A program made the translations under genes and the position numbers. Shown piece by piece: positions 1 through 19,388 of a stretch of DNA of 64,000 nucleotides (positions are counted from its first letter, which is position 1; each line of letters opens with the position of its first letter). The stretch comes from Alphaproteobacteria bacterium (lineage in GTDB: Bacteria; Pseudomonadota; Alphaproteobacteria; UBA9219), in NCBI GenBank assembly GCA_028866275.1, contig JAGWIK010000009.1:8339-72338 (forward strand), in the 5' to 3' direction. The notes under the pieces are model-generated. The model saw only the letters and a program-made list of their open reading frames with translations, searched no databases and was not told the origin of the DNA.

Positions 1-21
1 CCGTTTCTACCCCTCGGAGCC

Positions 22-1020: not shown

Positions 1021-1049
1021 TGTAACTTTTGCACGGCCTGAAGCGAATA
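1021..1049 (+). promoter_or_regulatory. ECF-sigma-like promoter motif copy 1 (TGTAAC-N17-CGAATA) upstream of mini-protein A
   Basis: TGTAAC at 1021-1026, 17-nt spacer, CGAATA at 1044-1049, about 60 nt before the ATG at 1110. Same architecture as the copies at 1276, 3396, 12074 and 19360. Confidence 0.5.
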
Positions 1050-1109
1050 GGTCGCATGATAAGCCATGCCTGAAGGCTGGCTTCGATAACCACAATCAGG
1101 AGAATTCTT

Positions 1110-1241
1110 ATGTCGCTCATGTGCAAAATGTCGAATAGCTGCTGTGCCACAAAAGGCATGTGCGTCCATGAAAAAATGATGATGATTATGGTGCTTATTG
1201 CCATGCCGGTGCTCGGACACTTCGTGTTGCGTTGGTTTTAG
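1110..1241 (+). CDS. unannotated 43-aa Cys-rich tail-anchored mini-protein A (MSLMCKMSNSCCATKGMCVHEKMMMIMVLIAMPVLGHFVLRWF)
   Basis: AGGAGA RBS 6 nt upstream of ATG. Four Cys in the N-terminal part, Met-rich C-terminal TM helix. Paralogous to the 51-aa ORF at 3486. Below the ORF-track length cutoff. Confidence 0.45.
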   Translation: MSLMCKMSNSCCATKGMCVHEKMMMIMVLIAMPVLGHFVLRWF

Positions 1242-1275
1242 GGCTGAGAAGGAATCTTTTGTGCGTGGAGTCCTA

Positions 1276-1304
1276 TGTAACTTTTCTGCAGGCTCCATCG
1301 AATA
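1276..1304 (+). promoter_or_regulatory. ECF-sigma-like promoter motif copy 2 upstream of the bufferin precursor gene
   Basis: TGTAAC at 1276-1281, N17, CGAATA at 1299-1304, 64 nt before the ATG at 1369. Confidence 0.5.
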
Positions 1305-1368
1305 GGGTGTCATGGTTCGACTTATCCCTGAGTTGTGACCTTTCATCAAACTAACCAAGGAGATCACG

Positions 1369-1734
1369 ATGAGTAAGATGCTTGAAAAGAACTATGGCTT
1401 AATCAACGCTGGCAAGAACGGCTGTCCGGGCAAACACCCCCATCCACAACCGTCAACTTCTACGGCGAGCAAGGCCGTCCTGTGCGCCGCGCTTGTTGGC
1501 CTGATGGCTGTTGGCGCTGCAGGCCAAGCCTTTGCCGCCGACAATGGCATGATGGCAGGCAAAGAAAAGTGCTACGGCATCGCCAAGGCTGGCAAGAACG
1601 ACTGCAAGTCCATGACCGGTTCGCACTCATGCGCTGGCATGTCCACCAAAGACAATGACCCCAACGACTTCAAGATGGTCAATACCGGCGAATGCGCCAA
1701 GGATGGCGGCACCATCGCGGCCCCCACGAAGTAA
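1369..1734 (+). CDS. bufA: bufferin-type RiPP precursor (DUF2282, BufA-like) with Sec signal peptide and an unusual ~30-aa N-terminal extension
   Basis: AGGAGA RBS. Core EKCYGIAKAGKNDCKS...HSCAG...GECAKDGG is typical of DUF2282. Hydrophobic h-region ends AFA/AD. Followed by DUF692, DUF2063 and DoxX. Confidence 0.7.
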   Translation: MSKMLEKNYGLINAGKNGCPGKHPHPQPSTSTASKAVLCAALVGLMAVGAAGQAFAADNGMMAGKEKCYGIAKAGKNDCKSMTGSHSCAGMSTKDNDPNDFKMVNTGECAKDGGTIAAPTK

Positions 1735-1791
1735 GAAGGCAACCGGGATACGGCCTCTGCGGAGGCCGTATCTTTTTCCTGCAGGGGAGTT

Positions 1792-2655
1792 TTGATGAGT
1801 AATCCATATCCCGATCTTGGTTTTGGCCTAGGCCTTCGTGCGCCTCATTATGAGCAGGTTTTACGCGAGAAACCCAAGGTCGATTTCTTCGAAATCATCT
1901 CCGAAAATTACATCGACGCGCATGAAGGCTATTGGGAGTATCTGGCCGATCTCCGCGCCCATTATCCGATGATCATGCATGGCGTGTCGATGAATATCGG
2001 CAGCGCCGATCCGTTCAACGACGACTATTTCCGTAAACTGAAAAAGCTGATTGACCATTTGCAACCGATCTGGGTGTCAGATCATCTGTGTTTTACAGGC
2101 CTCGGCGGCCACAACACGCATGACCTATTGCCGATCCCTTATGTTCAGGAGTCCTTGCAGCACGTTATTTCCCGTATTCATGAGGCGCAGGAAAAGCTAG
2201 GGCGGACGCTGGTGATCGAGAACCCATCGACCTATCTGGAGTTTCAAGCCTCGGATATTCCCGAATGGGAATTTCTGCGCGAAGTAGCGAAAGCGACTGG
2301 CTGCGGCGTCTTGCTCGACGTGAATAACGTCTATGTCAGCAGCTTCAATCACGGCTATGACCCGAAGCAATATATCGACGCCATCCCCGCCGATGCCATC
2401 GCCCAAATCCATCTGGCCGGACATTTGAATCTCGGCACGCACATCATCGACACGCATGACAATCATGTCATTGACGCGGTGTGGGATTTGTACGCTTACA
2501 CCGTTGCCAATAAAGGTTTGCACAGCACGATGATCGAGTGGGACGACAACATCCCCGCTTTTAATGTCCTTCTGGCTGAAATCAACAAGGCGCGCGATGT
2601 CGCCCTGCGTTCAACAACCAACGATGATGCCCATGTCTTACAACGCCGCGCTTAA
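1792..2655 (+). CDS. bufB: MNIO (DUF692) multinuclear non-heme iron oxidase, BufB-like
   Basis: N-terminus GLGLRAPHY... and overall DUF692/UPF0276 pattern; operon context with DUF2282 and DUF2063. Confidence 0.85.
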   Translation: MMSNPYPDLGFGLGLRAPHYEQVLREKPKVDFFEIISENYIDAHEGYWEYLADLRAHYPMIMHGVSMNIGSADPFNDDYFRKLKKLIDHLQPIWVSDHLCFTGLGGHNTHDLLPIPYVQESLQHVISRIHEAQEKLGRTLVIENPSTYLEFQASDIPEWEFLREVAKATGCGVLLDVNNVYVSSFNHGYDPKQYIDAIPADAIAQIHLAGHLNLGTHIIDTHDNHVIDAVWDLYAYTVANKGLHSTMIEWDDNIPAFNVLLAEINKARDVALRSTTNDDAHVLQRRA

Positions 2656-3400
2656 TCATTTACAGAGCAGCATTCTGCACGGCGATCCAGCCGAAGCCGC
2701 GTCGCTCGTGCGCCCGAAACCGCATTTGTCCGCCGAGAAGCAGTTGGGCGTTTACCTTGAAGGCTATCGGTTGCGACTTGTACAGGCTGTGCGCAATGAT
2801 TATCCCTGCCTTGGCCATTATCTCGGCGCAACGCGCATGAACGATCTGGTCGCGGCTTATGTGGAGGCGACACCTTCGTGCTCCTACAATCTCGATTTTT
2901 ATCCGTTCGGGTTTGGCGCGTTTGTCCGGCAGGCCAGTCAAGACCCGGCGGCACACGATCTCGCCGTACTAGAGCAGGCCATCGCCGAAATCTTCATGGC
3001 GCCTGACAGCAACCCACTGACCGCCGCCGTTTTTGCGCAGCTGGATCCGGAAACGCTGGGCAGTATGGTTTTCTACCCTCGCGCCGCGAACCGCCTGTTG
3101 CGCCTGACGCATGATGTCGAGCGCTACCTTGCGGCATGGAAGAAGGGCGAGCCGGAATTGACCATCGCTCCCGACAGGATTCACCTCTGTGTCTTGCGGC
3201 ACAACAACGAAGTGCAGCGGCATCGGCTGGAGCCGGAGGAATACCATCTGCTGGAAAATCTCGCGGCAGGACAAGTTTTTGGTCAGGCAATTGAGCCACC
3301 ACAGGCCAACCACCCACAAGACAGCGACCTTTTCGCCGCGAAGGTCATGAACTGGCTGCCGCGCTGGGTTGGAGAAGGTTTTTTCAAGCAGTCCATGTAA
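2624..3400 (+). CDS. bufC: DUF2063 MNIO partner protein, BufC-like (start uncertain, 2564-2633)
   Basis: Follows DUF692 with overlap; in-frame ATGs at 2624, 2627 and 2633 near the MNIO stop. Confidence 0.65.
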   Translation: MMPMSYNAALNHLQSSILHGDPAEAASLVRPKPHLSAEKQLGVYLEGYRLRLVQAVRNDYPCLGHYLGATRMNDLVAAYVEATPSCSYNLDFYPFGFGAFVRQASQDPAAHDLAVLEQAIAEIFMAPDSNPLTAAVFAQLDPETLGSMVFYPRAANRLLRLTHDVERYLAAWKKGEPELTIAPDRIHLCVLRHNNEVQRHRLEPEEYHLLENLAAGQVFGQAIEPPQANHPQDSDLFAAKVMNWLPRWVGEGFFKQSM

Positions 3401-3424
3401 CTTTCAGGCTTGTTCCCCCGAAGA
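3396..3424 (+). promoter_or_regulatory. ECF-sigma-like promoter motif copy 3 (TGTAAC-N17-CGAAGA) upstream of mini-protein B
   Basis: TGTAAC at 3396-3401, N17, CGAAGA at 3419-3424, 61 nt before the ATG at 3486; lies in the 3' end of bufC. Confidence 0.45.
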
Positions 3425-3485
3425 CGTTGGCAGAGACCAAAAACACCGTCCCATCGGGGCTAAACGTTATTTGCAGGAGGTTGTC

Positions 3486-3641
3486 ATGTCGGATTTATCC
3501 GAAAATCAAATCAAAGCTCAGGACGGCGAAAGCTGCGCAACCGGGGCCTGCGGCACCGGCATTTGCTCGCCCTGCACGATGATGAAGGTGATCATGATTG
3601 GCATGCTGGCCTTGGCTGGCTTCAAATATCTGGCGGGGTAA
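3486..3641 (+). CDS. 51-aa Cys-rich tail-anchored mini-protein B (MSDLSENQIKAQDGESCATGACGTGICSPCTMMKVIMIGMLALAGFKYLAG)
   Basis: Strong AGGAGG RBS 5 nt upstream of an internal ATG of ORF 3369..3641. Four Cys, then a Met-rich TM helix. Stop is 3 nt before DoxX. Paralogous to the 1110..1241 ORF. Confidence 0.5.
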   Translation: MSDLSENQIKAQDGESCATGACGTGICSPCTMMKVIMIGMLALAGFKYLAG

Positions 3642-3644
3642 GAA

Positions 3645-4127
3645 ATGACCAATCGGCAAACTCACGTGATCGAGAGCGGTTCAACATGCGGTACGATGTG
3701 CAAATGGATGGGGCAAGGCATGCGCGCCTATCTGGCTCTCACGAACTTTCTAAGTCCCTTGGTCTGGCTGGCGGCGCGGTTATGGATTGCGCGGGTGTTC
3801 TTCTATTCTGGATTGACCAAAATCCACGATTGGTCTTCGACGCTGTATCTTTTCGAGAACGAATACCATGTGCCGTTGCTGCCAATCCCTGTGGCGGCGT
3901 TCTCGGCGGCGCTGTTCGAATTAAGCTGTCCCGTGCTGCTCGTGCTGGGGTTCGGAACCCGTCTTGCCGCGCTGCCGCTACTGGCCATGACGGCGGTCAT
4001 CCAGTTCACCTATGACCAGAATATCGAGCATCTCTACTGGGCCTTGCTGCTCGGCCTCTTGCTGACCAACGGGCCGGGAAAACTGTCGGTCGATCATTGG
4101 GTGCGGCGGCGCTGGATGGGGCAATAA
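3645..4127 (+). CDS. bufD: DoxX family membrane protein (BufD-like)
   Basis: DoxX-like 4-TM pattern; operon position after DUF692/DUF2063. Confidence 0.7.
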   Translation: MTNRQTHVIESGSTCGTMCKWMGQGMRAYLALTNFLSPLVWLAARLWIARVFFYSGLTKIHDWSSTLYLFENEYHVPLLPIPVAAFSAALFELSCPVLLVLGFGTRLAALPLLAMTAVIQFTYDQNIEHLYWALLLGLLLTNGPGKLSVDHWVRRRWMGQ

Positions 4128-4128
4128 C

Positions 4129-4983
4129 ATGCCCCGCAACATCATCGATCTCGGCGAGCTTCATGACCGAATTGTCGTGTTTGGCGGTCCCTATAGCAAT
4201 CTTGAAGCGACCGAGGCTCTTCTAAAGACAGTTGACGATCTGGGCGTTCCGCGCAGCCATGTGCTGTGCACAGGCGATATGGTCGCGTATTGCGCCGATC
4301 CTGTCGAAGTGCTCGCCTTGTTGAGGTCGTCTGGGTTCGGCTTGCTGCTCAAGGGCAATTGCGAGGAAGCGCTGGCGAATAATGCGAAAGACTGCGGATG
4401 CGGCTTTGATGAAGGCTCGGCCTGTCATCGCCTGTCGAAGGATTGGTACAGCCACGCGGTGCAAAGCCTCGACGATGAAACAAAGCAATGGTTAGCGGGA
4501 TTGCCCGATCAGGCCGTATTCAACTTTGGGGGCAAGCGCTTCAGTGTCGTGCATGGCGGTGCCCGCCAGAATAATGCTTTCATTTTTGAAACGACGCCGC
4601 ATTCCGTTAAGCGTGAAGAAATAGAATTGGCCGGCAGTGACGCCGTTATCTGTGGCCACAGCGGCCTCTTTTTTACCGAAGTTTTTGGCGAGGCCTGTTG
4701 GCACAATGCCGGCGTTATCGGCATGCCTGCCAATGACGGAACGCCGCGCGTTTGGTACAGTGTCATCGATTCTATTCCTGAAGGCATCCGCTTTTCCCAT
4801 CTTCCTCTGGCTTACGACTTCAAAATAACCCAAGAGAAAATGCGTAAAGCAGGGTTGCCCGAAGGCTACGCTTCTGCCTTGGAGACGGGACTTTGGCCAT
4901 CGTGTGATGTTTTGACGGACGCAGAAAAGCAAAAATGCGGTGTAGAGGCGGTGCCGCGCCAGCACATTTGGAAAACGGTGTGA
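4129..4983 (+). CDS. calcineurin-like metallophosphoesterase
   Basis: VFGGPYSNLEA...GDMV and later GHSG motifs of metallophosphatases; 1-nt gap after DoxX. Confidence 0.55.
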   Translation: MPRNIIDLGELHDRIVVFGGPYSNLEATEALLKTVDDLGVPRSHVLCTGDMVAYCADPVEVLALLRSSGFGLLLKGNCEEALANNAKDCGCGFDEGSACHRLSKDWYSHAVQSLDDETKQWLAGLPDQAVFNFGGKRFSVVHGGARQNNAFIFETTPHSVKREEIELAGSDAVICGHSGLFFTEVFGEACWHNAGVIGMPANDGTPRVWYSVIDSIPEGIRFSHLPLAYDFKITQEKMRKAGLPEGYASALETGLWPSCDVLTDAEKQKCGVEAVPRQHIWKTV

Positions 4984-4998
4984 AGACAGTGCGGGGAA

Positions 4999-5676
4999 TT
5001 GATGAACAAATTTAACTTTAGTCAGCGTCTTATAAGCGAGCTACTCGGCACAGCTTTGTTGCTTGCTGTCGTTGTCGGTTCTGGAATCATGGGGGAGCGG
5101 CTGGCGGGTGGTAATGTTGCTCTTGCGCTGCTTGCCAATACTATTGCGACAGGCGCGGCGCTGGCGGTTCTTATCACAATCTTCGGGCCGATCTCCGGCG
5201 CGCATTTTAACCCCGCCGTGACCTTGGCTTTCTTTCTGAAGCGGGAAATAAATTGCCATACCGTTTTGGTCTATGTCGTAGCGCAGATTGCAGGCGGTGT
5301 GCTTGGCGTCTTTGCCGCGCACATGATGTTTGCCGAACCTGTTTTACAAATCTCGACAAAGCTACGGGACGGGTCGGCCTTGGCTTTTTCTGAATTTGTG
5401 GCGACATTCGGCCTCATGGCAACTATTCTCGGCACGGTACGTTTCAAGCCGGACTTTACGCCTGTTGCTGTTGGGCTTTATATCACCTCAGCCTATTGGT
5501 TTACGGCTTCGACCTCTTTTGCGAATCCCGCCGTGACGATTGCCCGATGCCTGTCTGATACATTCGCGGGAATTGCGCCGTCGTCCGCGCCCGTCTTTAT
5601 CGCGGCGCAGTTCCTGGGCGCGATCGTGGCTACCGCCGTGTTCGGCTGGTTGCTTAGAGAAAGGACTACCTCATGA
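4999..5676 (+). CDS. MIP family channel (aquaglyceroporin-like, possible arsenite channel)
   Basis: Two NPA boxes (HFNPAVT, FANPAVT); six TM helices. Confidence 0.85.
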   Translation: MMNKFNFSQRLISELLGTALLLAVVVGSGIMGERLAGGNVALALLANTIATGAALAVLITIFGPISGAHFNPAVTLAFFLKREINCHTVLVYVVAQIAGGVLGVFAAHMMFAEPVLQISTKLRDGSALAFSEFVATFGLMATILGTVRFKPDFTPVAVGLYITSAYWFTASTSFANPAVTIARCLSDTFAGIAPSSAPVFIAAQFLGAIVATAVFGWLLRERTTS

Positions 5677-6377
5677 CGGCGCGAACTGGACGCTTGCCGT
5701 TTGGCAGAATTATTGTCGTGGCGATCCTGCTGTCGCTGTTTGCGGCGGCATTCGCCTTCGACTTGCCGCATTACCTGACGCTTGATGCTTTGCGGGAACG
5801 GCAAATTGCGCTCAAAGCCTATCAAACGGCTCATCCATCGTTGGTCATAGCTGGGTTTTTTCTGATTTATGTTGCCGCGGCAGCGATGTCTTTCCCCGGT
5901 GCTACCGTGCTGACGTTACTGGGCGGCGCTTTGTTTGGTTTCTGGCAGGGACTTTTCGTGGTTTCTTTTGCCAGCACGATTGGGGCAACGCTGGCTTTTC
6001 TGTTGGCGCGGTATCTGTTGCGCGACTGGATTCAGAAGAAATATTACAAGCAACTTGCGATCCTGAATGCCGGATTTGAAAAGGAAGGCGCGTTTTACCT
6101 GTTCGCTTTGCGGCTCATGCCCGTATTCCCATTCTTTCTGGTCAATATCCTGACCAGCGTGATGCCGATCAAGACCCGCAGCTTCTACGGTGCAAGCCAG
6201 CTTGGCATGCTGCCGGGAACGGCGGTTTATGTTTATGCCGGGACGGAACTGGGTAAACTACAATCCGTGTCAGGTATCGCCTCACCATCGTTGATTGCTG
6301 CCTTTGTGTTGCTGGGGTTGTTTCCCTTGCTTGCTAAAAAAGGCATTTCTTATATTCGTAACCGGAGGCAAGCATGA
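5673..6377 (+). CDS. TVP38/TMEM64 (DedA/SNARE-associated) family membrane protein
   Basis: VTT-domain pattern; overlaps the neighbouring genes. Confidence 0.75.
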   Translation: MTARTGRLPFGRIIVVAILLSLFAAAFAFDLPHYLTLDALRERQIALKAYQTAHPSLVIAGFFLIYVAAAAMSFPGATVLTLLGGALFGFWQGLFVVSFASTIGATLAFLLARYLLRDWIQKKYYKQLAILNAGFEKEGAFYLFALRLMPVFPFFLVNILTSVMPIKTRSFYGASQLGMLPGTAVYVYAGTELGKLQSVSGIASPSLIAAFVLLGLFPLLAKKGISYIRNRRQA

Positions 6378-7813
6378 GCAAATACGACTATAACGTCATC
6401 GTTGTTGGCGCAGGGTCAGCCGGTTTGGTTTCCGCCTACATTGCCGCTACCGTGAAAGCTAAGGTTGCGCTGATTGAAAAGCATAAAATGGGCGGTGACT
6501 GCCTGAACACTGGATGCGTGCCCAGCAAGGCTTTGTTGCGTTCGGCTAAAATGCTGTCTTACGCCAAACGCGCCAAGGAATTCGGCTTTAACCGTACGGA
6601 AGTCGACTTTGACTTCGCCAAAGTGATGGAGCGCGTGCAGTCGGTGATCGCCTCCGTCGCGCCTCACGACTCGGTGGAACGCTATAGCCAACTGGGGGTC
6701 GCATGTATTTCCGGCGAAGCGCAAATTGTCGCGCCGCAAAAAGTGGAAGTGAATGGAAAGACGCTGACAGCGCGGAGCATCATTGTGGCGACGGGAGCAC
6801 GACCTTTGATTCCGCCAATTCCTGGGCTTGATCGGATAGACCATCTGACCAGCGACACGGTGTGGAATCTCCGCGAATTGCCGAAGCGTCTCGTTGTGCT
6901 TGGCGGCGGGCCGATTGGCGCGGAAATGGCGCAAGCTTTTGCGCGCCTTGGTTCCGACGTCACGATTGTCGAAATGGCTTCGCATCTTCTGGTGCGCGAA
7001 GACGCCGAGGTTATTGATCTGATCGCGCAACGTTTCCGCAACGAGGGCCTTACCGTTCTGACCGAACACAAGGCCAAGGCGTTCAGCAACAAGGATGGCC
7101 AGAAGGTTCTGACCTGCGAACACAATGGCAAGGATGTCGAAATTCCTTTCGATCAAATTATCGTCGCCCTAGGACGGCAGGCCAATATCAAGGGATTCGG
7201 CCTGGAGGAATTGGGCGTTAAACTCAGCCCGCGCAAAACCATCGAGGCCGACGCGTTTTTAGAAACCAACATCCCCAATCTTTATGTCTGCGGCGATGTG
7301 ACAGGACCATATCAGTTCACCCATACCGCCGCGCATCAGGCGTGGTACGCTTCCGTGAACGCGCTGTTCTCACCCTTCAAGCGTTTCAAGGTTGATTACG
7401 GCGTCATTCCATGGACGACCTTTACCGATCCGGAAGTCGCGCGTGTCGGCCTCAACGAGAAAGACGCCAAGGCGCAGAACATCCCCTACGAAGTCACGAC
7501 CTACGGCCTCGACGATCTTGACCGCGCCATCGCCGACAGCGAAGCACATGGCTTCGTGAAGGTTCTGACGGTTCAGGGCAAAGACAAAATTTTGGGTGTG
7601 ACCATTGTCGGAACACATGCCGGCGACATTATCCCTGAATTTATCCTTGCGATGAAGCACGGTTTGGGGCTGAACAAGATTCTTGGCACAATCCATATTT
7701 ATCCGACGCTTGGCGAGGCCAACAAATACGCGGCGGGCGCGTGGCGCAAAGCCCATGTTCCAGCCCTTGGATTAGCTGTTCTAAAAGTATTTCATGCATG
7801 GAGAAGGAATTAA
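6374..7813 (+). CDS. FAD-dependent pyridine nucleotide-disulfide oxidoreductase (mercuric reductase / dihydrolipoamide dehydrogenase-like, no NmerA and no C-terminal Cys pair)
   Basis: GAGSAG FAD motif; redox-active CLNTGCVPSK; dimerisation-domain C-terminus. Confidence 0.8.
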   Translation: MSKYDYNVIVVGAGSAGLVSAYIAATVKAKVALIEKHKMGGDCLNTGCVPSKALLRSAKMLSYAKRAKEFGFNRTEVDFDFAKVMERVQSVIASVAPHDSVERYSQLGVACISGEAQIVAPQKVEVNGKTLTARSIIVATGARPLIPPIPGLDRIDHLTSDTVWNLRELPKRLVVLGGGPIGAEMAQAFARLGSDVTIVEMASHLLVREDAEVIDLIAQRFRNEGLTVLTEHKAKAFSNKDGQKVLTCEHNGKDVEIPFDQIIVALGRQANIKGFGLEELGVKLSPRKTIEADAFLETNIPNLYVCGDVTGPYQFTHTAAHQAWYASVNALFSPFKRFKVDYGVIPWTTFTDPEVARVGLNEKDAKAQNIPYEVTTYGLDDLDRAIADSEAHGFVKVLTVQGKDKILGVTIVGTHAGDIIPEFILAMKHGLGLNKILGTIHIYPTLGEANKYAAGAWRKAHVPALGLAVLKVFHAWRRN

Positions 7814-7814
7814 A

Positions 7815-8786
7815 ATGGAAGGAAGCGCATTTATTGCCAGCTTCGGCAAAACGCTAAAAGACCACAACCTCACAATTGAGCGGAAAGCCGTAACGACTCT
7901 ACAAGTCAATATCGGCAAGCTGTGCAATCAGGCTTGCCACCATTGCCATGTCGAGGCGGGCCCCAAACGCACTGAAATCATGGAACGGCGCACCATCGAC
8001 CGTATTCTCGAACTTCTGGCAAACGAACCGCAGATAACGCTGGTGGATATTACCGGCGGTGCACCAGAACTCAATCCGCACTTCCGCGACTTTGTGAAAG
8101 TCCTTCGCAACATGGGTAAAGGCGTGATTGATCGCTGCAATCTTACCGTTCTGTTTGAAGAGGGACAGGAAGACACGGCTGAATTTCTTGCCCAACAGAA
8201 AGTGCAGATCGTCGCCTCGCTGCCCTGTTATCTGGAAGATAATGTTAACAAACAGCGCGGGCAAGGCGTATTCGGCAAAAGCATCGCTGCGCTGGAAAGA
8301 CTGAACGTCTTGGGGTATGGCCGCACGGGAAGCGGATTGGAAATCAATCTTGTTTACAACCCCGTCGGCACGCACCTTCCTCCAGCCCAAGAAAAACTCG
8401 AAGCCGATTATCGCCAGTATCTTTCAGAGAATTACGGCATTACCTTCAATCATCTCTTTACAATCACCAACATGCCGATCAAACGATTTGCCCATATGTT
8501 GGAACGTGATGGTTTTGCTGAGCAATACATGCAGCTTTTGATTGACAATTTTAACGTAGGTGCGGCTCGGCAAGTGATGTGTACGCAGCTTATTTCCATT
8601 GGCTGGGATGGCAAGCTGTATGATTGCGACTTTAACCAGATGCTTGGGATTCCGCTGAATTTCAAATCACGCACACTCTGGGACATTCCCTCGTTCGCGT
8701 CGCTGGATCGCGGTATTGCCTTCGCCGACCATTGCTTCGGATGCACGGCGGGCGCGGGAAGCTCGTGTACCGGTGCCTTGCTTTAA
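7815..8786 (+). CDS. arsS: arsenosugar biosynthesis radical SAM protein ArsS (Cys-containing, not Sec)
   Basis: CNQACHHCH radical-SAM motif; C-terminus CFGCTAGAGSSCTGALL; GGAGAAGG RBS before the ATG at 7815; adjacent to arsM. Confidence 0.8.
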   Translation: MEGSAFIASFGKTLKDHNLTIERKAVTTLQVNIGKLCNQACHHCHVEAGPKRTEIMERRTIDRILELLANEPQITLVDITGGAPELNPHFRDFVKVLRNMGKGVIDRCNLTVLFEEGQEDTAEFLAQQKVQIVASLPCYLEDNVNKQRGQGVFGKSIAALERLNVLGYGRTGSGLEINLVYNPVGTHLPPAQEKLEADYRQYLSENYGITFNHLFTITNMPIKRFAHMLERDGFAEQYMQLLIDNFNVGAARQVMCTQLISIGWDGKLYDCDFNQMLGIPLNFKSRTLWDIPSFASLDRGIAFADHCFGCTAGAGSSCTGALL

Positions 8787-8809
8787 CAATCCGCAACAGG
8801 AGATAAAAC

Positions 8810-9862
8810 ATGACTTCATCCGCCCAAGCCGTACAAAAAGACGTTCAGGAATATTACGGTGAAACACTGCAAAGCAGTGCCGATCTCAAGACCAGCGCCT
8901 GTTGTCCCATCGACAGCATGCCCGTACATTTGCAGCCTTATCTAAAAAAAGTCCACGCGGAAGTGCAGGAGAAATTTTACGGCTGCGGCTCGCCTATTCC
9001 CCAAGCACTGGAAGGCATGACGGTTCTTGATTTGGGGTGCGGCACAGGGCGTGATGTTTATGTTCTATCGCAATTAGTCGGAACAAAAGGCAAGGTGATC
9101 GGTGTGGATATGACCGAAGCGCAGCTCGCTGTTGCGAGGAAACATATCGCCTACCACACGGAAGCCTTTGGTTATCAGAAGCCGAATGTCGAATTTCACC
9201 ATGGCTATATCGAAAATCTCAAGACCATCGGCATTGCCGACACTTCGATTGATATCGTTGTGTCGAACTGCGTTATCAATCTTTCACCAGACAAAGAAGC
9301 TGTGTTCCGCGAGATTTTCCGCGTCCTGAAACCCGGCGGCGAGCTTTATTTCTCCGACGTCTTCACCGGACGGCGCGTGCCGAAAGCCCTGCAACACGAC
9401 AAGGAATTGCTGGGCGAATGCCTCGGCGGCGCGATGTATGTCGAGGATTTCCGGCGCATGTTGCGCAAGATCGGTTGCCTTGATTGCCGGATGATGAGTA
9501 AAGGACGCATTGCGCTCAACGAACCGTCTGTCGAACAGAAGGCCGGTATGATCGACTTTTATTCGATCACCGTTCGCGCCTTCAAATGCGACCTCGAAGA
9601 TATTTGTGAGGATTACGGCCACGTCGTCACTTACAAAGGCACGGTGGCCGAAGCGCCGCATGCCTTCCGGCTTGACGATCATCATCTGTTCAAGACAGGC
9701 ATGCCGGAACGCGTCTGCGGCAATACATGGAAAATGCTGATGGAAACGCGGTTTTCTCCGCACTTTTCTTCCATGGGGGATTTCTCGACCCACTACGGCG
9801 CGTTCGATTGCGCGCCAGCCACAGGAACGGAAAGCAACGCGCCCTCCGGCGCATGCTGCTAA
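8810..9862 (+). CDS. arsM: arsenite S-adenosylmethionine methyltransferase ArsM
   Basis: N-terminal YYGETLQSSADLKTSACCP conserved Cys pair; SAM-binding LDLGCGTG; additional Cys. Confidence 0.8.
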   Translation: MTSSAQAVQKDVQEYYGETLQSSADLKTSACCPIDSMPVHLQPYLKKVHAEVQEKFYGCGSPIPQALEGMTVLDLGCGTGRDVYVLSQLVGTKGKVIGVDMTEAQLAVARKHIAYHTEAFGYQKPNVEFHHGYIENLKTIGIADTSIDIVVSNCVINLSPDKEAVFREIFRVLKPGGELYFSDVFTGRRVPKALQHDKELLGECLGGAMYVEDFRRMLRKIGCLDCRMMSKGRIALNEPSVEQKAGMIDFYSITVRAFKCDLEDICEDYGHVVTYKGTVAEAPHAFRLDDHHLFKTGMPERVCGNTWKMLMETRFSPHFSSMGDFSTHYGAFDCAPATGTESNAPSGACC

Positions 9863-9880
9863 ATAACAACAAGAAGGAAT

Positions 9881-11418: not shown

Positions 11419-12122
11419 CCGGCGCGCTCGCCATCTTCGCTAAAACGCCTGGATTGTCGCCGGTTAAGACGCGACTTGCCACCGCTATCGGCGTTAAAAA
11501 GGCGGAAGAATTCTACCAGCATAGCGCCAAATGCGTCGAGGAACTCGCGCTTGATGCTTCGCGCATGAGCGAAGGCAGTCTTGTTCCTTACTGGGCGGTA
11601 GGCGAGCAAAACGGCCATGATCATCCTTTATGGATGAACATGAATCGTCTTTGGACTGGGCGTGGCGATTTAGGTGACCGGCTGCACCATGTTTACGCTA
11701 CGCTTCTGCAACAGCACGACCACGTTATCCTGATTGGCACCGACAGCCCCCAGCTTCCGGTTTCAGCCGTTCTAACCGCTCATGAGCATTTGAAGCGTAA
11801 AACCGGTCCTGTCATCGGCCCGGCGGATGACGGCGGTTACACTCTTTTCGGAGGGCATGTGCCCCTGCCACAGGCGTTATGGACGTCCGTGACCTACAGC
11901 GTCTCTACGACATGCGCAGATTTTGCAAAAAAGCTGAAGCCTTATGGCCCCATCCTGTTTCTTGAGCAAAGTTACGATATCGACATTCTGGACGATGTGA
12001 CAAAGCTACGAAACGATGAGGCCCGCATGATCGGCAAGGCTCAAAAAGCGCTGCTGGCATGGATTGAGCAGAATGTAACTTTCCGTGCGCATCCGGCGAA
12101 TGAGTACGAAGTCGTCGATTGA
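11415..12122 (+). CDS. DUF2064 / TIGR04282-like transferase associated with ArsS clusters
   Basis: N-terminal AIFAKTPGLSPVKTRL pattern; 4-nt overlaps with neighbours. Confidence 0.55.
   Translation: MTGALAIFAKTPGLSPVKTRLATAIGVKKAEEFYQHSAKCVEELALDASRMSEGSLVPYWAVGEQNGHDHPLWMNMNRLWTGRGDLGDRLHHVYATLLQQHDHVILIGTDSPQLPVSAVLTAHEHLKRKTGPVIGPADDGGYTLFGGHVPLPQALWTSVTYSVSTTCADFAKKLKPYGPILFLEQSYDIDILDDVTKLRNDEARMIGKAQKALLAWIEQNVTFRAHPANEYEVVD
12074..12102 (+). promoter_or_regulatory. ECF-sigma-like promoter motif copy 4 (TGTAAC-N17-CGAATG) internal to the array, upstream of DUF547-P450
   Basis: TGTAAC at 12074-12079, N17, CGAATG at 12097-12102, 34 nt before the ATG at 12137. Confidence 0.45.
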
Positions 12123-12136
12123 CCGGTGGAGTTTTT

Positions 12137-12889
12137 ATGAAAATCAGACTGATTACGTTTTTAACACTTTTGTTGGGCTTGTTTCTTACGGGCACGGCTC
12201 CGGCTTTGGCCTCCGACGACTACCTGACGCCTTATGACGGCTTGCTGGCGCAATATGTGAAGCCCGGCAACAAAGATGGCATTAACGCGGCGCTGGTCGA
12301 TTATCGCGGCTGGGCCAGAGATCCCCGGCATCTTCAGGCCATGGTGTCCTTGCAAAAGGCCAATCCGGAGACGCTTATCTCACGCGAAGAAAAAGCCTTC
12401 TGGATCAACGCTTACAATCTGCTGACCATCGATTTAATCATCCACCACCCCGACATTGCCAGCATCAAAGACCTCGGCAACTTATTGCAAAGTCCGTGGA
12501 AGGCCTATGACTGGAAGATTGGCGGCCACACTTATACGCTCGACGATATTGAGCAGAGGATTCTGCGCAAGCGCAACGATCCGCGCATTCACATGGCCAT
12601 TGTTTGCGCCTCGCTGTCTTGCCCCGATCTTCGTAATGAAGCCTATCGCGCAGATAAACTGGATGCTCAGCTTGACGATCAAGCCAGGAGGTTCCTGTCC
12701 AATCCCGCCAAGGGACTCAAAGTCATGCCTTCAGGCGTCATCCTGTCACCCATTCTGAAATGGTATGCGGAAGACTTTGGCGACGAAAAAGGCGTATTGG
12801 CTTTTGTTGCGCATTATGCCGTTGGTGTGCCGACCGGCGCAACCATTGATGATTATTTTACTTATAACTGGAATTTAAATCGTCCATGA
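12137..12889 (+). CDS. DUF547 domain secreted protein
   Basis: ATG at 12137 with GGTGGAG RBS; signal peptide MKIRLITFLTLLLGLFLTGTAPALA; the ORF-track start at 12119 is a TTG. Confidence 0.55.
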   Translation: MKIRLITFLTLLLGLFLTGTAPALASDDYLTPYDGLLAQYVKPGNKDGINAALVDYRGWARDPRHLQAMVSLQKANPETLISREEKAFWINAYNLLTIDLIIHHPDIASIKDLGNLLQSPWKAYDWKIGGHTYTLDDIEQRILRKRNDPRIHMAIVCASLSCPDLRNEAYRADKLDAQLDDQARRFLSNPAKGLKVMPSGVILSPILKWYAEDFGDEKGVLAFVAHYAVGVPTGATIDDYFTYNWNLNRP

Positions 12890-14373
12890 ATATCGGCACA
12901 AGTTCAAATCTATATGCTCCGTTTACCATTCGAGAATTGTTCAAACTTGGCGCGGCTTATATAGGGCTGCGCTATATGCCGGAGGTTCTTGGCGAATTGG
13001 TTGGACCGCAAACGCGGTATGGCGACCGCCGCCGCATCCGGAATCCCTTGCCCTTCGGCGCCTTCCGTGAAGCCATCCTGCTTGCCAATCCTTTGGATAT
13101 TCAGGCCGTTTTGAAAGACCATGGGGTGGAGCGTCCGGATTGCATACGCCACAGTTTCCAAATGACGAGTAAGAAGGACAATGCCTTCACAGCGCATGGC
13201 GATGTTCGAAAAAGACAGTTGAAGGATTTTTATGACTCCATGGCTCTGAAAACAGGCGTTGCCAATGAAGGAAAGTTGGAAGCTTTCGTTCGGCAGGAGA
13301 TTGCGGGTTGGCCACGATCCATCGACGATCTTGGCGATCAACTGACGATTCTCACGGCACGCACTTTATGCTACACATTCTTTGGCTATGACATGCCGCC
13401 GGACGAGGCCATAGCCATGAATCGCGCTTATAGCGGCGGGCTGCAAAACAACGTCCTGATAGGGTCGTTGATCCGGGCCTTTACCTGCAAAGGCAGTGAA
13501 AGCCTGCCTTTGCTCAACACGCCCCAAGCGGTAAAGGTTTTTCGCCAGATCACGGACAAGATCATTGGCAACGCTTTGGGGGTCGGAAGAGAACATTTTC
13601 CTGATAATTTCCTCAACAAGCTGATGACCAGCACAGGCTATTGGGACAATCCCTGTGACAAAAACGCGCGCGAGGAAGTGGCGGCGCAATTGACCATTCT
13701 CTTGGCCGGAGGCCATGAAGCACCGCGTAGCATGCTGTTCTGGGCGCTTAATCATGTCGCACGCGATAAAGCCGTTCAGGATACATTGAGTGATGAAGCA
13801 CGTATGGCTGCGTCTTCAGAAATGTCCGAGCCTTCCGTCAAGAAACGCCCCTTTGCCGTGAGCGTTCTGCTGGAATCCATGCGGCTCTACCCACCCGCCT
13901 TCGTCCTGTTTAAAACACCGGCCAACGATGTCAGGCTCCCGGACGGTGAAATCATCAGGCCGAAAACCTTGATTATGTTGCCGACAGCAGTCGTTCACCG
14001 CGATTCACGCCATTACGAGGCAGCGGATGAATTTCATCCGTACAATATGGATCATGCGCACATCAAAGCGCGACCAGCCGGGGCCTATCTGACCTTCGGG
14101 CGCGGTCCACACACCTGTCCTGGGCAGGGATTCGCCCTGCAGTTCGGCGCCATCGTCCTCGGTGAAATTCTTAACGAGAATAGGCTTGTTGCTCCCAATC
14201 CGGACATGCCACGCCCATCCAGTAAGGCGGTCATAGGCTCTCCAGCCGGAAGCCGCCTTGTGCTGCAACGGCGTGACAATTCTGGAGAAACGCATGCCCA
14301 CGTTTCTCCCTCACACCCTCAGGAAAACCCTAAAGCGCCCCAATGCCCGTTCAACTGGCATAGGTATTTATAA
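12886..14373 (+). CDS. cytochrome P450
   Basis: Heme-binding loop FGRGPHTCPGQGFA; ExxR present; ATGA overlap with the DUF547 stop. Confidence 0.85.
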   Translation: MNIGTSSNLYAPFTIRELFKLGAAYIGLRYMPEVLGELVGPQTRYGDRRRIRNPLPFGAFREAILLANPLDIQAVLKDHGVERPDCIRHSFQMTSKKDNAFTAHGDVRKRQLKDFYDSMALKTGVANEGKLEAFVRQEIAGWPRSIDDLGDQLTILTARTLCYTFFGYDMPPDEAIAMNRAYSGGLQNNVLIGSLIRAFTCKGSESLPLLNTPQAVKVFRQITDKIIGNALGVGREHFPDNFLNKLMTSTGYWDNPCDKNAREEVAAQLTILLAGGHEAPRSMLFWALNHVARDKAVQDTLSDEARMAASSEMSEPSVKKRPFAVSVLLESMRLYPPAFVLFKTPANDVRLPDGEIIRPKTLIMLPTAVVHRDSRHYEAADEFHPYNMDHAHIKARPAGAYLTFGRGPHTCPGQGFALQFGAIVLGEILNENRLVAPNPDMPRPSSKAVIGSPAGSRLVLQRRDNSGETHAHVSPSHPQENPKAPQCPFNWHRYL

Positions 14374-14405
14374 ATAAACAACCGCAGCGGTTTGACGAAG
14401 AGCGA

Positions 14406-15383
14406 TCATCGTGTCCGCGAATGACTGCGGCGAAGTGCCTCGTCCTCGCTCATACCACAATCGAGGCCGCCACGCTCGACGCCCTCGCGCCCGAAGCCGG
14501 CTTCCGCGACATCATCGCCTGCATTGCCGACTATCCCCTCAAGCAGATCGATCACCTCCTGCCGTGAAACGTCAAGCCCTGCCTCAGTGACCATTGGGAG
14601 GCGCGCATGGCGAAAGGGTTGCGTCAACATTCGATCAATACGCATTTCTTCCTTTTCGCGGAATTGCTCTAGCCCAATCTTCATCCTGTCATGTCCTTGC
14701 TCCGGCTGCGCGCGATAGGTACCGAACAGGCGATCCCATAGGGAGATGTTGAATCCGTAATTGCTGTTGATTTCGGCAACCGCCACTGAATGATGCACAC
14801 GGTGCATATCGGGTGTGACGAGGATGCGACGAAGTCTTTGATCCCATTTCGCCGGAAGCGCGATATTGCCATGATTGAACATGGCGCAGGCGTTTAAAAT
14901 GATTTCGAAAAACAGGACGGCTTCCGGCGGCGCGCCGATTGCGGCTACGGCGGCGAATTTAATAGCCATAGAGATAAGGATTTCAACGGGGTGAAACCGA
15001 AGCGCGGTCGTTACATCAAATTCAATGTCGGCATGATGAACACGGTGCAATCGCCACAAGATAGGAACTTTATGAAAAGTGACATGTTGGAAGTAAATCA
15101 TCAGGTCAAGAAACACCAGAGTCAGAAAGATATTCGCCAAAAAAGGCAGGCCAAAAAGAGGCAGAAAGCCCCACTGATGCTGGTTGACGCTAAGGGCAAA
15201 TCCAGCCAACGATACAGGAAAGACAAGACGCAGCACCGCAATATCCAGAATAACCAGCGCCAGATTGTGCGGCCAACGGTCACGGCGGCGTGTCTGTTGC
15301 GGCCGCCGCGGCCAAAAAGACTCAGCCACGGCCATAATGACGAAGACACCAAGGAAGACCGAAAGACGAAGAATATTTTCCAT
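14406..15383 (-). CDS. fatty acid hydroxylase / sterol desaturase superfamily membrane protein
   Basis: His boxes HRVHHAD and HRVHHS; multi-TM N-terminus. Confidence 0.75.
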   Translation of the reverse strand: MENILRLSVFLGVFVIMAVAESFWPRRPQQTRRRDRWPHNLALVILDIAVLRLVFPVSLAGFALSVNQHQWGFLPLFGLPFLANIFLTLVFLDLMIYFQHVTFHKVPILWRLHRVHHADIEFDVTTALRFHPVEILISMAIKFAAVAAIGAPPEAVLFFEIILNACAMFNHGNIALPAKWDQRLRRILVTPDMHRVHHSVAVAEINSNYGFNISLWDRLFGTYRAQPEQGHDRMKIGLEQFREKEEMRIDRMLTQPFRHARLPMVTEAGLDVSRQEVIDLLEGIVGNAGDDVAEAGFGREGVERGGLDCGMSEDEALRRSHSRTR

Positions 15384-15390
15384 GCCGCTT

Positions 15391-16098
15391 CTATTCAGCC
15401 GTAAAATGCAGATCGCGGTAATAGCCCGTCGCGGGCAACCCGCTATTATCGCAATCGGTCATAATCGCTACACCGTCAATGTTCGTAACGTCCATCCCAA
15501 ATAAGTTTTTGAAATCCTCGCGCACGTTGCGGACTTCGCTGACCCATCGCTCTGGCGTTGCAGGCTGTCCGGAACGCAGCGCGACCATCATGGCTTGATC
15601 CGTAAAGGCGTTCGGCCATGAGCTACCCACTGGCTGGCGGTTCGCCCACACATAATCGATTGCTTTTGTTCGCCACGGCATCAATGCGCTAGGCGCATAA
15701 ACGACATAAACGCGCGCGGCGTAATCGTCTCCGGCTTTGGTGGTATCATCCAAATCAGGATGCACCCCATCCGCGCGCCAGAACCAGCGCAGCACCGGCG
15801 TGCGCGTGAGGTCAACGGACATTCGGCGATACAAAGCCGAAGCCGTATCCTTGCATGTCGCCCGCAAGGTGTCCTGACCGATCAACTGGTAATTCGTATG
15901 CCCTTTGAATGAGCGTTCATCCCAGCTGGCCATTTCGTCATGGCTAAAGGTTCCAATCAACACGTCTTCAGCTAATGCGACGTTAGATTCCCCAGCTGTT
16001 GCCAGAAAGATCAAACCTATGAACAGGACAAACTGGACTTTAGGGTAATGCCTATACAGCCAGTGAGCAACGCGATTGAGCCATGAATTCATCTGCAC
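15391..16098 (-). CDS. DUF3047 family secreted protein
   Basis: Signal-peptide-like N-terminus; domain-pattern recognition only. Confidence 0.45.
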   Translation of the reverse strand: MQMNSWLNRVAHWLYRHYPKVQFVLFIGLIFLATAGESNVALAEDVLIGTFSHDEMASWDERSFKGHTNYQLIGQDTLRATCKDTASALYRRMSVDLTRTPVLRWFWRADGVHPDLDDTTKAGDDYAARVYVVYAPSALMPWRTKAIDYVWANRQPVGSSWPNAFTDQAMMVALRSGQPATPERWVSEVRNVREDFKNLFGMDVTNIDGVAIMTDCDNSGLPATGYYRDLHFTAE

Positions 16099-16113
16099 AT
16101 CCCGAAAATCTCT

Positions 16114-16770: not shown

Positions 16771-16771
16771 G

Positions 16772-17182: not shown

Positions 17183-17195
17183 AGTATGGCCTCCT

Positions 17196-17552
17196 TCAAG
17201 CCGCTCGGTGTTTGTTCTCTGTAAAGGCTCGCGATTCCTCTGCCAACGCGACGATGTCCTTGTTGGCTGTCGCCACGATACCCCATTCTTTCATCAACCG
17301 TCCGCGACATTCATAAGAGCCAAGGCAACCGAAATCAATCAATGCCGCAATACGACTGGCCGGAAGTTTCATCACGAGATGGCCGTTGTGCAGCTTGGCG
17401 AATACCTTGCCGTCGACGCGCAGGCAATCAAAGCCGAATAGTTTGACGCGCTCGACATGCGTGTCGGTTGCGCCATAGAACGCTGCCAATTTGGCGAATA
17501 GCTTTTCCCCCGACGATGCGGGAACGGAGGACTTAGGTTTGCGGGCAATCAT
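17196..17552 (-). CDS. TfoX/Sxy N-terminal domain-like protein
   Basis: Size and pattern only. Confidence 0.35.
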   Translation of the reverse strand: MIARKPKSSVPASSGEKLFAKLAAFYGATDTHVERVKLFGFDCLRVDGKVFAKLHNGHLVMKLPASRIAALIDFGCLGSYECRGRLMKEWGIVATANKDIVALAEESRAFTENKHRAA

Positions 17553-18094
17553 CAGGCAACCCTGCGAAATTTTCCACCAGGGCCGCCGAGCTTCTTTTGG
17601 ATATTGGCGAACGCCATATTCAGCATCATCGGCATCATATAAACCGCCATGAAACGCATCAACCCCGGACGCCAGTTGAAATAGGTGCGGAAGACAAGTT
17701 CCGAACCTTTATCGCGGGAACGCACTAGCAGGATCACATAGTGGTTCTCCGTCGGCACCATCATTGTGTTCTCCGGCTGGAAGGCGAAGGCATAGCCTTT
17801 GGGCGGATCCCACCAGATGATGCGTTCGACCACATTGCCCATCATGCCAATAGCGCAGGCTCTTTCCGATCCCACGCCGCACTGTCCGGAGCCGTTTTTG
17901 GAATGGGCGTGATTCATGTTCAACGCCTTCAGCATCGGCACCCATTGGCTGACATTTTGTGGTTCGGAAACATAGGCGAAGAGACGTTCCGGCGAAACGT
18001 CAAAACGCGCCACGCCTTCAAAGCGCAGCGGTACGCCGAGTCGTTTAGCGGCGTCAATCGTGGATAAATCCGAAAATGTCGCGGCGTAGGTCAT
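17552..18094 (-). CDS. SRPBCC (polyketide cyclase/START-like) family protein
   Basis: Pattern-level resemblance only. Confidence 0.4.
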   Translation of the reverse strand: MTYAATFSDLSTIDAAKRLGVPLRFEGVARFDVSPERLFAYVSEPQNVSQWVPMLKALNMNHAHSKNGSGQCGVGSERACAIGMMGNVVERIIWWDPPKGYAFAFQPENTMMVPTENHYVILLVRSRDKGSELVFRTYFNWRPGLMRFMAVYMMPMMLNMAFANIQKKLGGPGGKFRRVA

Positions 18095-18111
18095 GGGTAT
18101 ATCCTTTCGTT

Positions 18112-18528
18112 TCAGCCTTGGGCGATGGCTTCTTTCAATTGTTCATTGGTCATGGCTTGACCGGCAATTCCCCATGCGCCATCGACGGCATGCACGACAT
18201 TGACCCAGATATGGTCTTTGGGATGTTTGCCGCCGGACATCTCGTGGATGATGGCGGTCGCTTCCTCGATATAACCGATCTGAACCTCGCGCGTGGCGAA
18301 GGCGAATGACGGCACTTTCCATTCGATCAGGGCGACCGGAGATTCTTGCAAGCCGGAAAAAGTGCTGTCCTTTGCCAGTACATGAACGGAGCCGATGATG
18401 TTCGGCGTCAGAACCTTGTTTCCGGACAGGCCGTGCCATTTCAGAAAGGCCTCGGACAATTTGGCAAGCGCGGCCTTCTCGCTGCCTTGGGGTAAAACGT
18501 CTTCCGTGAGGGTGAGAGTAAGGGGCAT
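18112..18528 (-). CDS. tautomerase-superfamily-like protein (Pro1 after the initiator Met)
   Basis: MPLTL N-terminus; ~138 aa, two-half organisation. Confidence 0.3.
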   Translation of the reverse strand: MPLTLTLTEDVLPQGSEKAALAKLSEAFLKWHGLSGNKVLTPNIIGSVHVLAKDSTFSGLQESPVALIEWKVPSFAFATREVQIGYIEEATAIIHEMSGGKHPKDHIWVNVVHAVDGAWGIAGQAMTNEQLKEAIAQG

Positions 18529-18642
18529 AGTGGCTCCATTGGTTGGTTGCGCGCATGCGGCGTGAGATCGTGGTTACTCACGGTCAATATCAGAACACTC
18601 GTTCTGGTATTTGTCAAGGCAATCTACAACCACTGCCGAAGG

Positions 18643-19254
18643 TTAACGTTGCTCAAGGGTCTTTAGCGCGACGGATACCATGTTCTCGACGGTTTTACGG
18701 CCACCGCCGGAGCGATTAAGCGCCGATGCGGCATGTACGATCCCGACAAAAAAATCGGCTTCACGCTTAATGTCGAATGAGGGGGGTAATTCGCCCTTGG
18801 CAACGGCGTTACCCAACGCGCGGCGGAAGCTGAAGGAAAGTCTTTTGCGGAAGGCGGCGATCTTTTGCGCCGTTTCCGGCTCATGCGGTGCAACTTCGCT
18901 TGCGCTGTTGCACATCAGGCAGCCGAGTTTGGCTGCGGGTTGGGCTGAAACTTTGACCAGACGAGAGAAAAAGCCCCGAATCTCGGCGAGCGAAGCTTTC
19001 GGGTGTTCAACCGTGCCAAAAATGGATTCGATAATCGTATTCTGATAATGATCCAGCGCCGCTAGAAATAGCCCATGTTTGTTGCCGAACTCTCCATACA
19101 GCCCGTAGCGGCTGACGCCGGTGGCGGCAACCAGATCGTCGATAGACGTATCGAAATACCCCTTTTTCCAAAATACCGACATGGCCTTGGTCAAGGCGTC
19201 CTTGGAATCAAATTCACGCGTGCGCGCCATGGGGGAAAAGCCTTTCTTTAACAA
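18643..19254 (-). CDS. TetR/AcrR family transcriptional regulator
   Basis: N-terminal HTH TSIDDLVAATGVSRYGLYGEFGNK. Confidence 0.8.
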   Translation of the reverse strand: MLKKGFSPMARTREFDSKDALTKAMSVFWKKGYFDTSIDDLVAATGVSRYGLYGEFGNKHGLFLAALDHYQNTIIESIFGTVEHPKASLAEIRGFFSRLVKVSAQPAAKLGCLMCNSASEVAPHEPETAQKIAAFRKRLSFSFRRALGNAVAKGELPPSFDIKREADFFVGIVHAASALNRSGGGRKTVENMVSVALKTLEQR

Positions 19255-19359
19255 AATGCATGTTCTGTCTTTATGCGCTTGGAGTCAAGAAACAAGCCCC
19301 TTTTCATCTGGTTTCTCTTTCTCATGTGAGGGGAGTAGATAAAAAATAGTATTTCTGCC

Positions 19360-19388
19360 TGTAACTGTATGCTCAAACGGGACGAATA
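19360..19388 (+). promoter_or_regulatory. ECF-sigma-like promoter motif copy 5 (TGTAAC-N17-CGAATA) upstream of the AhpD-like gene
   Basis: TGTAAC at 19360-19365, N17, CGAATA at 19383-19388, 43 nt before the ATG at 19432. Confidence 0.45.

Follow-up and report, generated by a model that had tools for sequence, protein, structure and literature searches.

ECF16 (SigF/NrsF-type) candidate promoters in front of a bufferin operon and further genes of an uncultured alphaproteobacterium

We analysed 64,000 nucleotides from an uncultured alphaproteobacterium of the lineage UBA9219 (contig JAGWIK010000009.1, positions 8,339 to 72,338, forward strand; hereafter the window), in which a two-box element with a fixed 17-nt spacer, TGTAAC-N17-CGAA[T/G][A/G], occurs five times. 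We are confident that these five elements are promoters for RNA polymerase carrying a sigma factor of the extracytoplasmic function (ECF) group ECF16, the SigF type. Judged from gene order, the first three sites (P1-P3) would serve a classical SigF target, bufA-bufB-bufC-doxX, together with the genes of two mini-proteins (mini43 and mini51), and the other two (P4 and P5) stand in front of a DUF547-P450 and an AhpD-like-MgtC gene pair. The promoter type, the pair of sigma and anti-sigma factors and the link to bufferin operons are already known; what this locus would add is a modest extension of the regulon and two overlooked mini-protein families.

Exactly five matches to the pattern were found in the window, all on the plus strand: P1 (1021-1049) and P2 (1276-1304), both with CGAATA as the second box, P3 (3396-3424, CGAAGA), P4 (12074-12102, CGAATG) and P5 (19360-19388, CGAATA). 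They are those listed, with the same positions and letters, in an earlier reading of this DNA made from the sequence only, and the view taken there that their number is not random also holds. In 100 dinucleotide-preserving shuffles the expected number of matches was 0.01 for TGTAAC-N17-CGAAKR and 0.13 for TGTAAC-N17-CGAA, and none of the shuffles reached five matches. Allowing one mismatch added a single match, which is intragenic (7196, minus strand), and the resulting six against 2.7 expected are at chance level. An independent position weight matrix (PWM), trained solely on 30 sites from other genomes, also placed the same five sites at the top of the window, with scores of 24.7 (P5), 22.4 (P2), 21.6 (P4), 21.1 (P1) and 14.8 (P3), followed by 11.4 for the next match. 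The maximum score of a shuffle was 13.0 on average and 17.9 at the highest, and four of the five sites (all but P3) score above every shuffle. The sites are placed as promoters would be: from P1 to P5, the distances from the end of the motif to the downstream ATG are 61, 65, 62, 36 and 44 nt, each of these ATGs has a Shine-Dalgarno sequence, and all five sites have a called gene start 30-70 nt downstream, which is true of only 1.9% of the positions and strands of the window. The sequence-only reading likewise put every site upstream of a start codon, but its shortest distance, 16 nt, was counted to a TTG at 12119; the downstream ATG (12138), with its Shine-Dalgarno sequence and the start of a signal peptide, is favoured as the start of the DUF547 gene.

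That reading had called the motif ECF-sigma-like and assigned it to no group, yet it matches letter for letter the published consensus of ECF16 (SigF/NrsF) promoters, in which GTAAC-N17-CGAA and GTAACc-N16-CGAA describe the same geometry. The consensus given in the Brucella BcrS paper is (T/C)GTAAC-N17-CGAA, with -35 TGTAAC and -10 GCGAA(A/T) located by rapid amplification of 5' cDNA ends (5'-RACE). For Caulobacter SigF it is GTAACC-N16-CGAA, for which the regions upstream of sigF, CC3254-57 and CC2907-05 were studied by 5'-RACE and with truncated promoter-lacZ constructs, and the Bradyrhizobium paper proposed tGTAACc-N16-CGAA for group 16, with a distance of 6 bp from the -10 box to the EcfF start site. 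The base following GTAAC is T in the window sites and C in the published GTAACC form. In Sinorhizobium meliloti, the RpoE7 target SMb20530, which is induced on RpoE7 overexpression, has AATGTAAC-N17-CGAATG. The start sites in Brucella and Bradyrhizobium were determined by 5'-RACE or primer extension, and those in Azospira from RNA-seq coverage. The inducers of the characterised ECF16 systems are copper, chromate/cadmium, HOCl or H2O2.

Evidence for the regulator itself comes from the left edge of the window. The frame at 1-366 (plus strand) is open from the first base, ends with a stop at 364-366 and encodes the 3' half of nrsF (DUF1109/NrsF, the anti-sigma factor of SigF). The edge cuts the gene, and approximately the first 94 codons are missing and the C-terminal 121 residues are visible. 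The Pfam model PF06532 (NrsF) matches the fragment with 43.5 bits (gathering cut-off 26.8) at profile positions 122-202 of 204, and its identity to the NrsF of L065 (215 aa) is 78% over residues 95-214 of the latter. L065 is the closest relative among the loci compared (78% nucleotide identity to window 1-351). In every relative with nrsF the sigma gene lies directly upstream. In L065 an ECF sigma gene (136-663; Sigma70_r2 and r4_2) is overlapped by nrsF (653-1300) and followed by a motif, a mini43 homolog, a second motif and bufA. This layout suggests that sigF most likely lies about 0.3-0.8 kb to the left of position 1. The sequence-only reading had found neither a sigma nor an anti-sigma gene in the window and placed the cognate factor elsewhere; half of the anti-sigma gene is in fact present, and the sigma gene would most likely be its immediate neighbour.

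To place the sites in a comparative context, we examined 50 loci with MNIO homologs; a scan of genome contigs gave relatives at ≤67% identity. In alphaproteobacterial MNIO loci, GTAAC[C/T]-N16-CGAA[T] stands immediately before the gene of the precursor (BufA1 or Cys-rich BufA2-like), that is, at the position of P2 (L001, L005, L007-L010, L046, L048, L051, L057 and L058), and the motif also precedes doxX (L001, L008, L009, L010, L051, L057 and L058); the alphaproteobacterial loci with sites upstream of bufA and doxX number more than 12. The buf genes have an ECF sigma gene and nrsF as direct neighbours in L001, L005, L008-L011, L017, L023, L051, L057 and L058. When L065, which was found via mini43, is aligned with the window, TGTAACTTTT and CGAAT are conserved blocks and the spacers and flanks have diverged, a phylogenetic footprint of P1 and P2. 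A P3-like site is also conserved in L057, a 70%-identical relative: in the window the -35 box of P3 (TGTAAC, 3396-3401) contains the TAA stop of bufC (3398-3400), and in L057 the bufC TAA likewise lies inside TGTAAC (11626-11631), with MerT-HMA-DsbD instead of mini51-doxX as cargo. No such conservation at orthologous positions was found for P4 and P5. Elsewhere the motif precedes classic ECF16 cargo, namely MsrB-like, Met-rich MrpX-like and DsbD-like genes (L009, L089 and L091). The strict pattern gave no autoregulatory SigF promoter in the short interval between doxX and sigF of L051, L057 and L058; the contig of L065 has a CGAAT 15 nt from its start, and the -35 box belonging to it would fall off the contig.

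Several observations weigh against the assignment to ECF16. The NCBIfam equivalog model for NrsF gives the fragment 12 bits against a cut-off of 300, a low score that is expected for half a protein of a diverged lineage. NrsF/OsrA proteins have two functionally important cysteines (C129/131 and C179/181); the fragment contains four cysteines, none of them at the column of the 'ECxxC' of its relatives, and the second cysteine column varies among the relatives. A tblastn search of the window with three ECF16 sigma factors gave nothing below E = 0.98, and no sigma domain was found by Pfam in the mid-sized open reading frames (ORFs) of its right half. A genome may contain several ECF16 paralogs that share these sites. 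The score of P3 lies within the range of the shuffle maxima, and its second box reads CGAAGA rather than CGAAT. Finally, the motif is absent before the DUF547 gene of L054 and before the AhpD-like genes of L054-L056 (70% identical).

The last observation bears on an alternative in which just P1-P3 are real SigF promoters and P4 and P5 are fortuitous or non-functional, with the genes behind them controlled by other means, such as TetR or read-through from upstream. We regard this as unlikely. Besides the lack of conservation in L054-L056, two features of the window favour it: a TetR-family gene (18643-19254, minus strand; Pfam TetR_N and TetR_C_13) is divergent to P5, and P4 lies within an annotated coding region, where it falls in the final 18 codons of the DUF2064 gene. 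However, two further exact matches 36-44 nt upstream of starts and on the right strand would arise by chance with a probability of about 3e-6, and P5 and P4 are the first and third best PWM matches of the window, above every shuffle. Moreover, the C-terminal tail in which P4 lies lacks conservation: in the L054 homolog of the DUF2064 protein (65% identical), homology stops at residue 217, ahead of the motif. In L054-L056 the AhpD-like gene sits after an HxlR-tautomerase unit, and in L054 the DUF547 gene sits after a CDP-alcohol phosphatidyltransferase gene; the arsenic-type, DUF547, FA-hydroxylase and DUF3047 genes of these loci are syntenic with the window despite the lack of the motif, and the homologous loci without P4 and P5 are 65-70% identical to the window. 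P4 and P5 thus look like lineage-specific recruitments, and our confidence in them is lower than in P1-P3. A single regulon that joins the bufferin operon, DUF547-P450 and the AhpD-like gene, as the sequence-only reading had proposed, is plausible, but its last two members lack conserved sites in the homologous loci. The TetR regulator, which shares the intergenic region with P5, may be a second input there.

A second alternative takes the motif as the operator of a DNA-binding transcription factor with two direct half-sites. Any bipartite motif with fixed spacing upstream of genes could qualify in principle, which is nothing specific to this motif, and DUF2063 was once proposed to be DNA-binding. 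The two boxes are, however, unrelated to each other and make up no repeat, direct or inverted; a spacing of 17 nt and an orientation that strictly follows that of the downstream gene are traits of promoters; the same sequences have mapped starts and depend on a sigma factor in four species; and no sigma70-like promoter accompanies the sites, a scan of the window for sigma70-type promoters having given nothing beyond the shuffle level. An operator is thus highly improbable. Least probable of all, and effectively refuted, is the idea that the five copies are what is left of a promoter cassette or repeat element that was duplicated or mobile, or that they cluster by chance. P1 and P2 do have a few bases in common beside the boxes (TGTAACTTTT and CGAATAGG), but the shuffles never produced five matches. 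Outside the two boxes the five copies share just a short T-run behind the -35 box; their spacers and flanks show no homology and cannot be aligned, so that the sites are not copies of a repeated element, and in genomes with diverged flanks the boxes are kept at orthologous positions.

With promoters of the ECF16 type as the preferred explanation, the following mechanism can be proposed by analogy with the characterised systems. NrsF, a six-helix anti-sigma factor, would hold the sigma factor inactive at the membrane and release SigF upon thiol-reactive or metal stress. RNA polymerase with SigF would then bind TGTAAC(T) as its -35 box and CGAA(T) as its -10 box and start about 6-8 nt past the latter, which predicts 5' untranslated regions of roughly 30-60 nt. 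The predicted transcription units are mini43 from P1; bufA-bufB-bufC, for a bufferin, a copper-chelating ribosomally synthesised and post-translationally modified peptide (RiPP), from P2; mini51, doxX and, by read-through, a ten-gene arsenic-type array from P3; the DUF547 protein and the P450 from P4; and the AhpD-like protein and MgtC from P5. We infer the adjacency of sigF, the actual use of the sites, the inducing signal and the read-through into the arsenic-type array.

The core of the regulon is the bufferin operon. It consists of bufA (1369-1734, plus strand), which encodes the bufferin-1 precursor (DUF2282/BufA1; Pfam DUF2282, 8.5e-21); bufB (1795-2655, plus), which encodes the MNIO (DUF692) modification enzyme (Pfam MbnB_TglH_ChrH, 8.6e-105) and whose product is identical to MDE1900970.1; bufC (2624-3400, plus), which encodes the DUF2063/HvfC partner (Pfam DUF2063, 8.1e-13) and whose start codon is uncertain; and doxX, or bufD (3645-4127, plus; Pfam DoxX, 1.5e-17). 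With DUF2282, MNIO, DUF2063 and DoxX in one operon, this is a bufferin-1 (buf1) cluster by its Pfam content. Behind bufA, at 1745-1780 (plus), a 13-bp GC-rich hairpin followed by a U-run has a predicted folding energy of -27.8 kcal/mol (z-score -3.4) and is also flagged by the terminator scan, which otherwise stayed at the shuffle level throughout the window; Rfam and tRNA scans of the window gave no matches. By its fold the hairpin looks like an intrinsic terminator or attenuator, and it probably sets an excess of the precursor over the enzymes. A second MNIO (MDE1901276.1), a paralog of bufB with 77% identity, is on record for a 63-kb contig with a neighbouring NCBI accession. The metagenome-assembled genome of the window is probably its source too and would then have two buf operons, like Caulobacter.

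Compared with the known systems, the locus shares with Caulobacter crescentus/vibrioides, where sigF-nrsF lies next to CC3254-57 (buf1ABCD) and a buf2 is also present, the same boxes, the same spacing, the NrsF/DUF1109 family and the core operon. CC3254-57 encodes DUF2282-DUF692-DUF2063-DoxX, a bufferin-1 cluster that is controlled by SigF and induced by copper. The leader lengths can also be compared: the start site of CC3254 is at -61, and the motif in the window ends 65 nt before bufA. The window differs from Caulobacter in the T rather than C after GTAAC, in three separate promoters within the buf locus (before a mini-protein gene, before bufA and before the second mini-protein gene with doxX), in targets unreported for Caulobacter (DUF547-P450, AhpD-like-MgtC and probably the arsenic-type array) and in a PAP2-family phosphatase gene (411-968, plus; Pfam PAP2) that lies between nrsF and P1. 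This gene is absent at that position in L065, where nrsF leads straight to the promoter of the 43-aa protein, and by gene order it is an insertion relative to L065. The RpoE7-EcfR7 system of S. meliloti (SMb20530-20527) has a target promoter of the same form as the window sites and an operon of the DUF692/DUF2063 type, but its regulon, unlike that of the window, is essentially the sigma operon and one divergent operon. BcrS-AbcS of Brucella melitensis, SigF-NrsF of Azospira suillum and EcfF-OsrA of Bradyrhizobium belong to the same families of sigma and anti-sigma factors as the window and share the consensus (T/C)GTAAC-N17-CGAA. Their regulons are small and concern thiol or methionine oxidation stress, and none of their cargo (MsrPQ/YedYZ, the Met-rich MrpX/BcrX, methionine sulfoxide reductases and thioredoxin/DsbD) is in the window. 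In Cupriavidus metallidurans, RpoQ-RsqA and gig combine an ECF16 sigma factor and a membrane anti-sigma factor with a neighbouring DUF2282/MNIO metallophore operon in a metal-resistance context; no ECF16-type motifs were found upstream of gig and dependence on RpoQ was not demonstrable, whereas the consensus in the window is perfect.

Two Cys-rich mini-proteins, each with one transmembrane helix, accompany the operon. The 43-aa mini43, rich in Cys and Met, is encoded at 1110-1241 (plus) behind P1 and has no match among the Pfam or NCBIfam models. Its family comprises 72 clusters of homologous proteins, 31-65 aa in length and almost always 39-47 aa. The members begin with MS[LMV]MC and have an invariant GMC[IV]HE core before the transmembrane helix; the invariant residues are M1, S2, M4, C5, G16, M17, C18, H20, E21 and M24. 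The motif precedes mini43 homologs in L060-L067, L073 and L076-L078, with a spacer of 16 nt in L064, and in the Novosphingobium-like contigs L061-L063 the mini43 gene lies between bufA and bufB with a motif of its own. An ECF sigma, NrsF or buf genes were found within 4 kb in 21 of 28 metagenomic mini43 loci. The 51-aa mini51 (3486-3641, plus, behind P3) has an SC.T..CG.K.CSPC-like motif before its transmembrane helix. Its family is rarer, with a handful of homologs on the present sequence evidence: among 1.84 billion representative proteins two were found (P0241, E 5e-10, and P0242), of which one lies in L060, where the gene (2868-3023) stands directly after sigma-nrsF and behind a motif. A homolog in L077 (about 1810-1660, minus) also lies behind an ECF16 motif, and a 51-aa homolog in L001 (7889-7737, minus) follows doxX in a motif-driven operon. 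Both families are present in L060 and L077, each behind its own motif, and one or both recur behind the motif near sigma-nrsF in the independent contigs L060, L061-L064, L066, L067, L073 and L077. A comparison of the two mini-proteins for paralogy found no significant similarity. Their genes are not described in the bufferin and MNIO surveys that we consulted. The mini-proteins could be membrane-anchored thiolate binders of metals or metalloids, could modulate NrsF or DoxX, or could be further substrates of the MNIO enzyme.

We tentatively propose, at somewhat less than an even chance, that the mini43 family, at least, is a widespread overlooked part of ECF16/NrsF regulons and bufferin clusters and that the SigF regulon of this lineage extends to organoarsenical-type metabolism, a P450 and AhpD-like/MgtC. 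If true, this extension would link defence by a copper peptide with metalloid and thiol stress. Under the ECF16 explanation itself, some 20 kb of this uncultured bacterium would have a regulator, with NrsF as a membrane sensor of redox state or metals and one sigma factor that controls a copper-chelating RiPP. The locus would illustrate how an ECF regulon can grow, by a 27-bp two-box promoter planted in gene tails or intergenic regions before new cargo. The ECF16 motif can further serve as a flag for tiny genes missed by annotation, as the two mini-protein families were recovered in this way.

The arsenic-type array comprises ten tightly packed genes (4129-12122, plus) with gaps of ≤23 nt or overlaps. 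By Pfam it encodes a metallophosphoesterase, a MIP channel, VTT/DedA, a pyridine-nucleotide disulphide oxidoreductase, radical-SAM+DUF3641, an ArsM-like methyltransferase, a PNP/MTAP-like phosphorylase, GT2 and DUF2064. From doxX to the P450 (3645-14373), fourteen consecutive plus-strand genes follow one another with gaps of ≤23 nt or overlaps, and no terminator-like or sigma70-like signal above the shuffle level was found in this interval. These results suggest that the ten genes are probably co-transcribed from P3 and, by read-through, from P2, so that these promoters may drive the radical-SAM/DUF3641, ArsM-like and PNP genes. The sequence-only reading had tied the arsenic cluster to the regulon through P4, which follows the arsenic genes; membership would run instead via P3 and read-through, and P4 may be an internal booster for this run of genes. 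Behind P4 lie the gene of the DUF547 protein with a signal peptide (12138-12889, plus; Pfam DUF547) and that of the cytochrome P450 (12886-14373, plus; Pfam p450). Window 4129-16098 and L054 1-5243 (a JGI metagenome contig) are syntenic in the ArsM-like gene, the PNP/MTAP-like gene, the gene at the GT2 position, DUF2064 and DUF547, followed on the minus strand by FA_hydroxylase and DUF3047. The L054 gene in the GT2 position has no Pfam call, and the CDP-alcohol phosphatidyltransferase gene is extra in L054. The radical-SAM+DUF3641 gene of the window is upstream, and the corresponding region is outside the examined part of L054. By its gene content the syntenic set looks like an organoarsenical biosynthetic cluster of the arsenosugar or arsenolipid type.

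Downstream of P5 are the gene of the AhpD-like/CMD-family protein with a Cys-rich C-terminus (19432-20007, plus; Pfam CMD, NCBIfam peroxidase-related and AhpD core domain) and that of the MgtC-family protein (20020-20721, plus; Pfam MgtC). The NCBIfam model 'arsenosugar biosynthesis-associated peroxidase-like protein' matches the AhpD-like gene weakly. A second CMD-family gene, also with a Cys-rich C-terminal tail, is present at 20718-21089 (minus); its DNA is 74-77% identical to CMD genes on C. metallidurans megaplasmids, which is a weak match and the sole one in the plasmid collection. Further to the right, two large ORFs at 22863-27166 (plus) resemble, by reading of their sequence, an RND-type metal efflux pair, the adaptor being CusB/HlyD-like and the pump CusA-like; this pair has no ECF16 motif upstream. 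From about 30000 to 64000 the translations resemble those of a phage, a gene transfer agent or an integrative element, with tail-fibre-like and tape-measure-like ORFs and DUF3489, DUF6362 and DUF2924 genes. In L054, a Phage-tail_3/Rcc01698_C gene likewise follows the AhpD-like gene.

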